DNA of 64,000 bases, taken from the IMG/VR virus record IMGVR_UViG_3300031418_000003. One strand, given 5' to 3'. A program made the position numbers. The DNA comes from a virus. Its lineage: Duplodnaviria; Caudoviricetes. Shown here in pieces: positions 42,001 to 57,000 of the stretch (position 1 is its first letter; the number at the start of each line of letters is the position of its first letter).

Positions 42001-45000
42001 CTCCGAATCGATTACTGTTGGCAGCGACGTCCTCCCGGCTCGTATGTTCAGTGGCCATGGTTTGGTGGTTGGGGATAAGGTCTTTATCCAACTGGCTCCT
42101 CGTCAGAATAACGGCAATATCTTTAAAGACGTCAAGATCAAGTCGGTGAATAAGATCACGACTGTTCCTGATCTTCAGTACGACACTGAACAGGGTATTG
42201 TTGGATTTACAATCCCCAACACAGCGATTAAAGTAGTAGACGATCGTGCTGATATGGCGATTGAATTCTTGTTTACAGGAGAGAAGGATTACTCGTTCTC
42301 CTATAAAGGTTCAATCAAGGTTGATGTCCCTTATTCTATTACAGTAGATAAGCCTGTTTGGGGGTATCGTCGGGATTCGTTGACCGATCAAGTTTATATC
42401 GATGCTACCTGGGTGCTGCGTGGTAATGACGGACATTATCCTAACATCGCCAACATGACCCAATTTCGTGTCAATGGAATGGATTCAGTCTATACACAGA
42501 AGTATAACTCCGGATACGGGGCATTGGTCGTTTCCTTCCCTGTGGATTTAAAGAGCGGAAATAGCCTGTATGTGGACGCTGTGGCATCGGCATCAGGATT
42601 AGGTACGTTCTTACACCTTCCTGCCATTGATGCCCGTTACCGTGAGCCTGGGACCGCTGTTTACGTTGATCATGAATTCATTGGGGATAAACAGGTTAAA
42701 GTCTTCTTTGATATTCAGGGTTGGGGATCTGAACCGCCGTTTGAAGTTCAATTGGATGATCAATCCTGGAACCGCCAACAAGGGGTTAAACTTGGAAAGA
42801 CACGTTCTGAGTATGACAACAAGAAAGGTCGGTTAACCGTGGTGTTTGATATTTACGATATCAATGCCCCGGTATTCTCAGCCAGCACTGAGATGAAGTT
42901 TGACTTTGCAGACACAACAATTTATCCGATCAGTTTCTCCTTTACCAAATAACCAATAGAGCTTCTGGGTCAGACCCAGAAGCTCTAGTTATAATGTAAG
43001 GTGTTTCGAATCTTTTGCTTTAGTAATTTAATCGACCTTAGAATATTTTCATGTAATAGGAGATCTGCTAAATGGCAGAGTTGATCAAAGTTAATAAGAA
43101 AGTTATTAACGATCCGCTGTTTACGCCAGTGATTAAGTATCTTCAGGACCGTATCGCCAAATTAGAAGTTACGGGACCTGCAGATGAGCTGGCGTTATCG
43201 AAGCAACGTTATGACGGACTGGTTGCAGGCGATCTTGTTATTGAGAGCGCTGTTACGTTTCCAGATGGGGCTATTCGTGTCTGTATCATTTCGCGTAAGA
43301 CGGGCTTTGCTCGTGTCGATATTGATATTGCACAAGTGGCGATGGATGATATCTTAACTGACTTTGCTGTTCCCCTGGTAGAGATCGATGATGCTGATGC
43401 CCTGAAAGTATATGTGAAAGCATTGGCTGAACCGGTTGAACCTACCTTACTGTATCTGAAGTCTGAAAAGACTTATGGCGTATTGATTACTCAGGAACAG
43501 GCTAAGACCCACGAAGGCGCAATGACAGCGTTCGGTGACTTGTTCTTTGAGAACTACGTTATCCAGCGTGAAAGTGAAAACTCCATCGATTGGGAATCAC
43601 TGGAATGCGGTACAGTTACCATTACTGATCCGTCATTCGGTCGGGGCGTTTATCCGCTGTTCATTTATGAGTTAGTGTTATCCGAAGCCCAGCTTCCGGA
43701 GATCACCTCTAACTTGCCAGCATCTGTTACCAGTCGTCGCGGAGAATCGTTTACGATTCCTAACACGTACACGTTTTCTGGTACGCAGGATATCACCACA
43801 GTCGCTACTGTAGAACTGAGCACTAAAGCTGGTTATGCGATTCTTGATCGGTCAGCTGATCTCCTTGAGATTGATGGCAACACGATCTATGGGTCGGCCA
43901 GCAAAGAGGTTACGGATCAGATCGTTGTTCGTGTTACCTATGACTGGAACGGTCGGTTGGTTCACAAGAACTTCTATATCGACTTGCTGATTGAAAAGGA
44001 TCTTCCCAACGACCTGACAATCACCTCAGTACCTTCTGACGTTGAAGTGGGTAACGGGAATACGGTTGAAACTGTATTGACTGCCACCTATAAAGGTGAT
44101 GTGGTCGAGATTCTGATTCCGCCAGCTACACTCAAGTCTCAGGACAACCGCACCAATCTCTCCTACGTTAAAACCAATAAAGACTTGTCGATGGTTTACC
44201 GTGGTGTGGCGAATGGTCAGTTTGCTGGTGATATCCAGAAAGTCAACGCCCTGTGCCAAGGTGAGTTCAGTTACAGCGATAACGGCACTATTGTTAAGGC
44301 TACTGGATTTATCAATATCGTCATCGTTAAGCCAGAGGTCCTGCCGACATTCAGTGTCACCGACGTTCCAACGTTCCTGCAAGGTTACAAAGGCGATACG
44401 GGTAGCTACAAGCCAGTCATCAAGTACGGTGATAAAGTTATCCCGCTTACTGACGTAGGTGTCTCAACAGGTGTTCAAGGTAGCAAGCATCTGATCGATG
44501 TTACCTCTGTTAATAACAACACCGGTGTGAGTTGGAAAATCGTTGAGGATTCAAATACCCCAGGGTTAGCGGTGCGCGATACCTTTACCCAGACTTACTC
44601 CTGGACGTCTGAAACGGGTGCCTATTACAGTAAAGATTTTGTCATCTCTGTTCAGGCTAATCTTGATTCAATCATCAGTGTGGTTCCGGCTGGACAACAA
44701 CCGCGCCAGGTGAAACGTTATCAAACTGGCGGACCGACTTTTGATGTCGTGGTTAATGGAACGGTTGATAATACTGTCATTCGTACCTTGACTGTCGACG
44801 ACCTCAAAGATCCGAGCGCAACTAATGTTCAGTACATTATCAATGCCAAAGATCAACCTAACCGTTGGATGGTTATTCGGGCAGAAAAGACCGAGGTTAC
44901 TTACAGTGCTAACTTTACCTTTACTATCTTTGTAGACGGTAAAACCAAAACACTGCACTTCACCCAACAGTTTATCATCGAGAAGTATCCTGCTTCCTCT

Positions 45001-54000: not shown

Positions 54001-57000
54001 GGTAGCATTCCGACCAATCGGTTTAATGTGGAAATGATGTAACCAACAGGAAGGGTCCAGTGTATCGGACCCTCTCTTTTAAAGGGGTAAAAATGGATAA
54101 GCAAATTACACTGCTCGAAGGTCAACGTAGCAGTATCGTCGTTAAACCTACTTTTGAAGGCAAAGCGGCTGCGGATAAAGTTGAGTTGTCACAGTCACTG
54201 AGTAACGCGGACATTCTCCAGTTACTGAGTCCCCCTGTTGCCAGCGAAAACAATACTGTTGCCACAGTTGCGGTTAAAGTGGGGGCGATTGCTGATCTGA
54301 CGGGTAACCTGGTTTATAAGTATACCGGTAACGCATCAGAAGTTGAAAACATTGGCATCAGTACCAAAGAGATTGGTATTAAAGTCAATGCAGCAGAACT
54401 GGTTACGGCAGCAGCACCTTCACCCGTTAAGTTTAAGTGGTTAGCGGGTCTGGAACTGAATATTGCGGTAACGTACAAGAACGGCACTGAAGTGCTGGAT
54501 AACGAGGATGCTCAACTCCTGCTGAGTGTGGGTGGCGACTTCCTTGAGTTTGTTGGTCGCTCTGAAACCGGCGTGGCACTGAAGATCAAAGATGATATTG
54601 ATCCGGCTACTGCCCCTACCGAAGTTCAGCAGCTGATTGCCAAATATTATTCCGGTACGTCTACTACCGACCTGGAGTTTGTAGCGAAGCCTGTATTGAC
54701 CATGACGGCTGCAGCTGTTTCTCTGGCGATGGGCGGTACACAAAACTTCCCAATCACGGTTAAGAAGGGTGAAGATGACGTCACTTCTTCTCTGACCAAC
54801 ATCCAGACCACCGCAGACGAATACTTCACGGTTGACACCAATGGTAACATTACTGTTATCAAGGCAGATTCCACTGATGTAACTCGTACGCTTCAGTATA
54901 CCTTTGATTACACTGAAGATGGCTTTACGTGGAATTACACGAAAGACGTTGATGTGACTATCCAGGGTACGGTGGAAGAAGCCCAGTTAATGTTGTCTGA
55001 CGTTTCAACACCGCTTACCATGAACCTGTGGGAGAAGAAGGTATTGACGTATAAAGTTCTCGACGGTGAGACCGATGTGACTTCTGAAGTCACCTCTGTT
55101 GAAGTTGTGAACGCAGCTGACATTGCCAGCAAGTTTGAATTCACGCAGGACGGTGTGGTTACCACCTTCCAGTCTGTTAGCTCTAGCACTACTGATCAAG
55201 TTACTGCGACTGCCAACATCCTGGTTAAAGGTACACACAACGGCGAGGCCTTTAGTCTCCCTGCTGATATCAACCTGGTTACGAACATCAATGACGGTAG
55301 TATCCCTACTAACCGTTTCGACGTTCAGATGGAACAGTAATAAAAACGAGAGAGGGATTCCGAAAGGGATTCCTCTCTTTCTTATAAGGGGGTCAGTCGA
55401 AATGGAAATTAAGATACTTGAAGGTCAGTCTGGCGCAGTTAAGATCGTGCCGACATTTGAAGGCCAGTCCATCATTGACAGAATAATGGTAGATTGGAAC
55501 AAGACAGATATGAAAGGAATGGTTCTACTCGGCAGGGACATGGTCGGGAAGGATAAACGCAGTGCCTTTATTCCCGTTATTGCACAAGCAGTATCGGTAG
55601 GAACAGGTGTCATTGTGTTTAAATATCTCGATGCTCACAAGGACGGAGAAAACATTGGGACGGTTACCAAAGAAGTTGCTGTTCGGGTATTGCCGGCTTC
55701 TTTAACTGTGGTGAACATAGCCCCTACCATCATAAAGTGGCTGCCTGGTACAGAGACTGACATTGCGATCTCCTGGACCAACGGCGGACAGTCGGTTATT
55801 GCCACAGATGGGTTACTTGATCTGAGTACTACGGGGGATAACATCACCATTGTTTCCCGCACCAAGGACGGGGTCAGAGTTAAAATAAAAGACGGGGTCG
55901 ATACAAATACCTTGCCGACAAAGGAACAAGTTATTGTTGCGCGGTATTATTCCGGTATTGCTAAATCCATATTAACCTATATGACCAAGCCGACACTAAC
56001 GATCACCTCCACAGGAGTAATCAACCTGAAGGGAAAAGGAAGTACGCAAGCATTTCCGTTTAAGATCATGGACGGCACTAAAGACGTTACCAAGTTAATC
56101 AAGAATATCAAAGCAAGTGATGAGTATATGAAGTTTAATGACGATGGTAGTTTCGTCGTGATTAAAGTTAATCTGTTAGCGGTTGTAAGAACGATCAGTT
56201 ATACCTTCGATTACGAAGTGAACGGACTCGTGTGGTCCTATGGTACCAAAGTAAACGTGACAATTGGTAACCTTATCAATATTTAATTGGTGAGCGCTGA
56301 TGTTGCCCAAGTATCTATGTGGAGTAGATACCTTAACGACACCAGGTTTGAATAAAGGTTCTGGATATCACCCAGGGTAATCCCTTTATTAAACAAAAAA
56401 AAAATAAGACTAAACTAGAGAACCTACCCTGATGGGTAGGTTCTCTATTATGTTTATTTAGGCAAATTTGTAATAAGGGGAAGACTCAGACTCTTTTGAA
56501 CCTATAATAAACTTATAGATCGAATTGTCTTTATCCAACTTCAGAGCGACAGGAAGAATAGGTTTGTTTTCCTGATTACCGATAAAGGTGAGTAACCCAT
56601 CTGAAGTTAACTTGACCTGATATGTGTGATCAGCACCTGGCAAATGCACATCAGGATGATCGTACCATTCAGGGTACATATCTTCCATAAGTAAATCACG
56701 ACCAGCAAGCGCACCAATGTCAACCAGCAAGTCACGTGCTTCCAGGAAGTTCATCCCCATCTCTAATCCAGCGACTTTAAAGTACGGGTCTCCCTTTTCT
56801 GGATTCACTCGCCAGATAAAGGGATCTTTACGAAATGTCAATGGATGAACATCTGGATTATTAATACCTTCAACTAACCAGATCGCCAATGCAGTCAGGT
56901 GAACTTTATCCAAATTACGGGTCTGGAGTGGACCACCGATTTCGATCTCGAATAACGTAATAACTTTAATACCCATGACCACTCCTTAAATCTGCCAGAT

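Follow-up and report, generated by a model that had tools for sequence, protein, structure and literature searches.

Donor-strand complementation is known to date from bacterial and archaeal pili and from matrix fibres. In chaperone-usher pili (Fim, Pap, Caf1), which are made up of adaptor, rod and tip, a strand-deficient immunoglobulin-like (Ig-like) subunit with an exposed core receives an antiparallel strand from its neighbour. Classical cadherins reciprocally swap the A strands of their equal N-terminal EC1 domains, anchored by Trp2, in reversible adhesion. The T4 gene products gp34-gp35-gp36-gp37 form a fibre end to end, with a conserved proximal and a variable distal end, but are trimeric β-structured rods with trimer-trimer interfaces and need chaperones. 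Here we describe a putative fibre locus in a 64,000-nucleotide stretch of DNA (the window) from the IMG/VR virus record IMGVR_UViG_3300031418_000003, in which a giant protein of 3656 amino acids (aa) is followed by proteins of 415 and 294 aa that may be joined to it, and to each other, by a donated strand. The strand absent from a chaperone-usher subunit is its C-terminal G strand, and an N-terminal extension acts as donor (PMC13655056). In Bacteroidota, type V pili (FimA, Mfa1) are built by a protease-mediated process in which the N-terminal anchor strand of a subunit gives way to the C-terminal donor strand of its neighbour; the resulting link is head to tail and non-covalent, and tip and terminator subunits are present (PMC13655056).

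An earlier note on this DNA had likened the locus to chaperone-usher pili. The principle of strand donation bears the comparison, but the polarity is that of type V pili (PMC13655056), with a C-terminal donor and a missing N-terminal strand, in the phage by prediction only. Type V pilins are exported lipoproteins whose own N-terminal strand is removed by a gingipain and whose own C-terminal strand first self-complements, whereas the phage acceptor would be made without strand A, with no cleavage step, with cytoplasmic assembly and as part of multi-domain Ig strings. A signal peptide or lipobox is absent from the sequence, the proteins start 3-9 residues before the strand that carries the L.G motif, and the Pfam scan gave no sequence similarity to type V pili. 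In comparison with chaperone-usher pili, the polarity is predicted to be reversed, the phage protein is cytoplasmic, and most of the fibre is one covalent 3656-aa chain with the last two links alone non-covalent; no chaperone- or usher-like gene was seen beside the fibre genes. Cadherin strand swapping seems a looser analogy: aromatic-anchored docking of an A strand would be common to both (Phe in the phage), while the phage joint would be one-way, C to N, and serve chain assembly. Unlike the T4 fibres, the models obtained here are single-chain Ig-like strings with an intradomain-strand joint. The direct homologues are gp203-gp207 of Pseudomonas phage OBP, gp194-gp198 of Erwinia phage AH04 and gp019-gp022 of Kosakonia phage Kc263, which carry the same junction motifs in pieces of varying number and length; all are annotated as hypothetical, one of them with the misleading label "attaching and effacing protein". 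Our literature search, of incomplete coverage, returned no paper on a donor-strand complementation joint in a phage fibre.

A probable fibre in three polypeptides

Our preferred reading, to which we assign a probability of roughly 60%, is that in a jumbo phage from the OBP/AH04 group the locus encodes one long thin Ig fibre, made in three polypeptides that are joined by donation of a tail strand. Each cut would split an Ig-like domain behind strand A and ahead of the A' strand with its L.G turn. The upstream protein would thereby keep strand A at its C-terminus, as a tail (..GSIPTNRF.V..), and the downstream protein would start at A', without strand A. The tail would then pair antiparallel with strand B in the domain that opens the next protein, with its Phe and Val/Met side chains filling the acceptor core and its Arg beside an invariant Glu, and the donor domain would pack on top of the joint with its conserved Trp end. 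The chain would run from the giant through the 415-aa protein (an "extender") to the variable 294-aa protein as the distal piece. Strand donation at the joint between the giant and the 415-aa protein is well supported in silico by the models described below, and at the joint between the 415-aa and 294-aa proteins it is supported by homology. We infer the binding in the virion, the order and numbers of the proteins and their nature as a virion fibre; the conserved N-terminus of the giant, the variable distal end and the synteny point to a location in the virion.

The ends of the three proteins agree with what the earlier note had described, and all the open reading frames (ORFs) and strings that it quoted are present. 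The giant stops immediately after the putative donor strand (..NNGSIPTNRFNVEMM), the 415-aa protein begins at the L.G point (MDKQITLLEGQ..) and ends with the same strand (..NDGSIPTNRFDVQMEQ), and the 294-aa protein also begins at the L.G point (MEIKILEGQ..) but ends without a tail (..TIGNLINI). The extent of the likeness between the first two ends had been understated, as the whole domain of ~117 aa with its tail is shared, not just the strand (46% identity over 117 aa, E 9e-30). In addition, the 415-aa protein resembles the 294-aa protein over its first 289 aa (37% identity, E 8e-60). By these two similarities, the 415-aa protein is a paralogue of the 294-aa protein that bears a copy of the end of the giant. 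The tails of the giant and the 415-aa protein differ at few positions, and in the SIPTNRF copy that they share the third base differs in all 7 codons, which shows that the identity is kept by selection at the protein level; for the same reason, recent gene conversion between the two tail-coding stretches was rejected. The acceptor profile matches the 294-aa protein at E 4.5e-48. Exactly two donor modules and two acceptor domains occur in the complete 266,753-bp genome, which fits a 1:1:1 chain of giant, 415-aa and 294-aa proteins.

The interior of the giant offers covalent counterparts of the putative joint. There, a (W/Y)D(G/Q) turn with a short strand behind it repeats about every 310 aa. 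The in-cis succession of W-type domain, strand and L.G domain that the earlier note had reported is recognizable in these junctions and the quoted strings exist, although a literal KLEG is found in only 2 of the ~8 junctions (aa 1343 and 1654), the others having diverged, and one example string contains five T, not four (..IYYRATTTTTKLEG). The AlphaFold2 (AF2) model of giant aa 1225-1775, based on a 32-sequence alignment, is all-β with a predicted local distance difference test (pLDDT) score of 90.9, and its best fold matches are the titin I-band, cadherin ectodomains and the SbsB S-layer protein. The model of the 415-aa protein (22-sequence alignment, pLDDT 87.9) comprises four β domains and matches four-domain cadherin and protocadherin ectodomains. 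From both fold models, the fibre is therefore a beads-on-a-string row of Ig-like domains; at ~105 aa per domain, we estimate ~42 domains over the three proteins and ~170 nm if extended. In the model of the giant, strands were assigned at 110-114, 119-122 and 126-135 for the junction at aa 1318-1362 and at 421-426, 429-434 and 437-446 for the junction at aa 1630-1675, the motif of which is kept in OBP gp207 and in L010. The strands equivalent to the tail (110-114 and 421-426) are ordered, with block pLDDT 93-95, and are followed by the L.G strand. In a profile comparison, the acceptor LEG falls just past the in-cis A strand of the aa 1318-1362 junction (E 3e-4).

Predicted joint between the giant and the 415-aa protein

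We predicted the complex of giant aa 3530-3656 (127 aa; alignment A2, 24 rows) with aa 1-110 of the 415-aa protein (alignment A3, 23 rows) and obtained a score of 0.81 (0.81, 0.72 and 0.81 in three runs), against 0.00 for the best control. Among 80 solved complexes, 58 attained the score mark, as did 2 among 110 mismatched pairs, counts that are only roughly valid here because custom alignments were used. The runs had at least 96% of contacts in common, with a partner pLDDT of at least 79, a mean pLDDT of the donor chain of 92-93 and an expected error of 0.4-1.0 Å. Searches of PDB sequences with profiles of the donor module (A2) and of the 415-aa/294-aa family (A4) returned zero matches, and recall of a known complex by the predictor is thus unlikely, since no solved structure matches by sequence.

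In the predicted complex, the tail of the giant (positions 121-126, RFNVEM) runs antiparallel to residues 16-22 of the 415-aa protein, on strand B (..VVKPTFE), and the contacts follow the rule i + j = 143 (F122-F21, N123-T20, V124-P19, E125-K18, M126-V17). F122 and V124 additionally contact residues 75, 77 and 86-92 on the opposite sheet, and the conserved Leu-Trp of the donor domain contacts Glu22. On the 415-aa side, the predicted interface comprises residues 2-3, 15-24, 26, 30, 56, 75, 77, 82, 86-90 and 92. In the Ig fold, strand B has strand A as its antiparallel partner, and A' with its L..G turn then passes over to the opposite sheet. As modelled, the tail would hence occupy the canonical strand-A position in the N-terminal domain of the 415-aa protein, and the L.G start of both small proteins fits the turn between A' and B.

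The model of the 415-aa protein alone is consistent with this arrangement. Its last domain extends to residue 397; residues 398-415, which form the tail, are modelled as coil at a pLDDT of 62 and then 44, and its N-terminal domain is the least confident (pLDDT 73-86, against 91-96 in the middle domains). As judged from strand assignments, not coordinates, it has no strand before the L.G strand, whereas one is present in the in-cis domains. The donor strand is thus predicted to be coil alone and ordered in the complex.

Conservation of the predicted joint and position of the breaks

We compared 14 loci, namely that of the window, those of AH04, OBP and Kc263, and those of ten metagenomic contigs. 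They share a giant protein with the N-terminus MAE(L/M)IKVNKK.. and smaller proteins with the junction motifs on the same strand, by which we recognize the OBP/AH04 type. Across 23-24 homologues, donor residues L24, W25, I117, R121 and F122 and acceptor residues F21, E22 and Y77 are invariant and lie in the predicted interface; acceptor E85, which adjoins interface residues 86-90, is invariant too. Pairwise identity reaches 0.76 in the tail columns as compared to 0.46 in the donor domain, and 0.56-0.66 in the interface segments of the acceptor as compared to 0.31-0.34 elsewhere.

The fibre is split among two to five genes across the relatives, for instance into pieces of 4079, 1859, 939, 230 and 507 aa in OBP and of 3445, 396, 224 and 294 aa in AH04. 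Of 34 polypeptide breaks in the 14 loci, 23 belong to the strand-A-tail type, 10 to a second type (type A), with a tail ..PVT(L/V).Q.. and a subsequent start M..Q.L.VNGQ.., and one is of another kind. The second-type junction is fused within the giant in the present phage, at ~aa 2090-2110; it was placed by BLAST of the N-termini of the relatives' split proteins, which align to giant aa 2104-2222, and by pairwise alignments. Because its tail aligns to the strand that precedes the L..N strand, in both break types the cut seems to fall behind the first strand of a domain, and the second type might thus also be an intradomain cut. In a profile search of 1.84 billion representative proteins, all 31 strong matches to the donor module, found in proteins of 95-4123 aa, end at most 2 residues from the C-terminus. 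What looked like an internal copy of the tail, fused within a library protein of 5418 aa, was rejected as an unrelated repeat. The central claim of the earlier note, that the tail completes the first domain of the next subunit, hence gains in silico support from the complex prediction, the disordered tail of the monomer, the conservation of the interface, the position of the breaks and the C-terminal placement of all 31 matches.

Most of the 31 donor-module proteins start with the second-type acceptor start, and they look like interchangeable cassettes that bear a standard connector at either end. One and the same plug, NINDGSIPTNRFDVQ, is present in the 415-aa protein and OBP gp204, despite an overall identity of only about half between the aligned modules. 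A near-invariant plug (..NDGSIPTNRF..) might be a standard connector through which distal modules are exchanged among Pseudomonas, Erwinia, Kosakonia and other jumbo phages. Many metagenomic proteins of 201 to 3124 aa (P0066-P0090) combine a type-A start (M..LKQ..SVNG..SN.DP..VI.LD) with a type-B plug end. In Kc263, the "attaching and effacing protein" (gp021, L003:12578-16327) is a segment of the fibre that begins with a type-A start and carries a type-B plug, so that its label probably reflects mere Ig-like similarity to intimin or invasin. A third kind of break was observed in a Salmonella-associated 267-kb contig (L028:6001-22122), where the giant ends with ..EYGKSYATPFKVEVAQ and the next protein starts with VELKQSSAVPFAVTD..; the same strand seems to be present on both sides of it. 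A subsequent type-A tail in this contig meets a different start (MIPFSVNDPITG..).

Alternative readings

The same parts could be assembled otherwise. Proteins with both socket (acceptor domain) and plug (tail), the 415-aa protein here and the 221-230-aa proteins in OBP, AH04 and Kc263, might homopolymerise C to N, so that a pilus-like distal filament would grow to variable lengths on a stalk made of the covalent Ig string, in one variant with the 294-aa protein capping the 415-aa polymer. We regard this as possible, though tentative. Both ends are indeed borne by the 415-aa protein and by the minimal 221-230-aa protein of the relatives, which consists only of acceptor and donor module. In Kc263, the 229-aa socket-plus-plug protein comes last, the genome contains no other free acceptor domain and no cap domain, and the fully conserved tail of this protein resembles the kind of tail that fits its own socket type. 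Furthermore, the core residues of the 415-aa and 294-aa sockets are identical (PTFEG, Y77, NIG, K92), and the higher rare-codon content of the 294-aa gene (6.5% vs 0.7%) is compatible with fewer copies of a cap. Nevertheless, two donors and two acceptors suit a 1:1:1 chain equally well, the peripheral socket residues differ (interface identity 10/24), and the codon argument is weak; the giant, which would have one copy per fibre, is also codon-rich. The common core of the two sockets would likewise be compatible with the 415-aa and 294-aa proteins being alternative tips that compete for the single plug of the giant and give rise to a mixed fibre population, as would the few differences between the two tails, the lack of a consistent pairing code across the loci and the opposite charge of the two proteins, rightly described in the earlier note as acidic and Lys-rich (isoelectric point 4.26 for the 415-aa and 9.13 for the 294-aa protein, with 8.9% Lys in the latter). 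We judge such competition unlikely, for it would leave the donor module of the 415-aa protein purposeless, yet this module is under strong purifying selection and a cap-type gene always comes next in the closest loci; moreover, the gene order donor, acceptor plus donor, acceptor is conserved across the loci.

Several points weigh against joining by strand donation altogether. All structural evidence is predicted, and a pass in complex prediction is not proof of binding; the predictor may favour a tandem geometry for two Ig domains, and the assignment of the tail to strand A was based on the contact list and general Ig topology, not on coordinates. The alignment of the donor N.NDG onto the in-cis KWDG is weak (profile E 0.014, probability 3%). 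An assembly chaperone is not evident, whereas strand-deficient Ig domains of pili need one, and we found no proteomic or electron microscopy evidence for these proteins in the virion in the literature. In Kc263 and L006, the tail-bearing protein is the last gene of the locus, and the tail can therefore exist without a dedicated downstream acceptor. Finally, a charge code between tail and acceptor (E/D at tail position 125 with K18; Q with T/V), promising in 15 pairs, was rejected, being broken by L026, which has A/K and E/T. The tail could instead serve receptor contact, attachment elsewhere on the virion or folding, and the alike ends could stem from duplication. We consider this improbable in view of the controlled prediction (0.81 vs 0.00), the coincidence of the invariant residues of both proteins with the predicted interface, the disorder of the tail in the monomer model, the 23 junctions broken at one intradomain position and the donor module never being internal (31/31 library matches). 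Were the docked junction locked by an isopeptide bond of the SpyTag/SpyCatcher type, the conserved Asn/Asp of the tail (N120, N/D123) and the acceptor residues K92, E22 and E85, which lie in or beside the interface, would be the candidates. This is highly improbable, since by the contact list K92 meets tail residues 124 and 126, not 120 or 123, no Pfam similarity to known isopeptide domains was found, and the homologous in-cis domains do not have these residues.

If confirmed, joining of the three polypeptides by tail-strand donation would be the first case known to us of donor-strand complementation linking phage-fibre proteins. It would explain how an unannotated family of giant proteins in OBP/AH04-type jumbo phages is assembled, why the fibre is cut at one intradomain position into two to five genes across phages, and how distal, probably host-recognising modules are swapped. 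Both the plug (~12 residues) and the socket (one 105-aa domain) are small, which makes the strand-donation hypothesis directly testable and the pair of interest as natural protein connectors.

Gene layout and expression signals

The source record is a complete phage genome of 266,753 bp with terminal repeats. In the phage collection searched, Erwinia phage AH04, a 262-kb jumbo phage, was the sole DNA-level relative of the window. The fibre locus consists of four consecutive plus-strand genes downstream of nrdB (Table 1), and Pfam and PHROG scans of the four encoded proteins gave zero matches.

Table 1. Positions in the window of the genes, domains, junctions and hairpins of the fibre locus.
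Feature	Position	Strand	Description
715-aa protein	40805..42952	+	immediately 5' of the giant gene; syntenic 716-926-aa protein in AH04, Kc263 and L026-L028
GC-rich hairpin	42957-42987		after the 715-aa gene
Giant fibre protein, 3656 aa	43072..54042	+	~35 Ig-like domains, ~310-aa super-repeat
In-cis junction	47023..47157	+	aa 1318-1362: last strand of W-type domain, WDG, IYYRA strand, linker, KLEG strand, B strand
In-cis junction	47959..48096	+	aa 1630-1675 (GSTSVRFKV..KLEG..PVYKD); closest look-alike of the trans junction
In-cis type A junction	49324..49461	+	aa 2085-2130 (..GPLVVR-LASNNSQ..NLVIK..); split into two genes in most relatives
Giant donor module	53680..54039	+	last W-type Ig-like domain (aa 3537-3641) and tail
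Giant putative donor tail	53995..54039	+	aa 3642-3656, NNGSIPTNRFNVEMM
Terminator-like hairpin	54052..54073	+	between giant and 415-aa genes
415-aa protein ("extender")	54093..55340	+	4 Ig-like domains: acceptor, 2 body domains, donor module with tail
415-aa acceptor domain	54093..54407	+	aa 1-105, begins at A' strand (ITLLEG)
415-aa donor module	54987..55337	+	aa 299-415; tail aa 400-415, NDGSIPTNRFDVQMEQ
Hairpin	55350..55383	+	between 415-aa and 294-aa genes; 12-bp stem, GAAA loop, T-rich run
294-aa distal protein	55402..56286	+	3 Ig-like domains, N-terminal acceptor, no donor module
14-bp palindromic hairpin	56416..56447	.	locus end; faces convergent minus-strand genes

The 415-aa and 294-aa genes each have their own Shine-Dalgarno sequence and each follow a terminator-like hairpin. 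The former starts at ATG 54093, with AAAGGGG just 5', and the latter at ATG 55402, with AAGGGGG just 5'. GTG 54060 was rejected as start of the 415-aa gene, being inside the hairpin, and most homologues start at MDKQ. A GC-rich hairpin lies 3' of each of the four genes of the locus. As partial terminators or elements of RNA stability, these hairpins may determine in what ratio the three proteins are made. Rare codons (ATA, CGA, AGG, AGA, CTA, CGG, TTA) account for 6.5% of the 294-aa gene, 0.7% of the 415-aa gene and 1.8% of the giant gene; together with a lower GC content (0.435 against 0.474), the codon usage of the 294-aa gene points to lower expression or a different origin.

The N-terminus of the giant is conserved across 31 full-length homologues (35-75% identity), with a near-invariant start, MAE(L/M)IKVNKKVINDP. 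The 715-aa protein encoded just upstream is a possible proximal component of the fibre; in the Atlas search it gave only weak, sub-threshold Ig-like leads. It ends, like its homologues in L001, L026 and L027, in a conserved ..(T/D)(T/V)(I/V)YPISFSF(T/N)K, and this end and the start of the giant may form another conserved joint or provide attachment to the virion. The locus is flanked by nrdB with an HNH intron ORF on one side and by small convergent ORFs on the other. The ORF between the nrdB pieces, at 39404-40105, matches HNH endonuclease families (phrog_59, E 8.7e-38).

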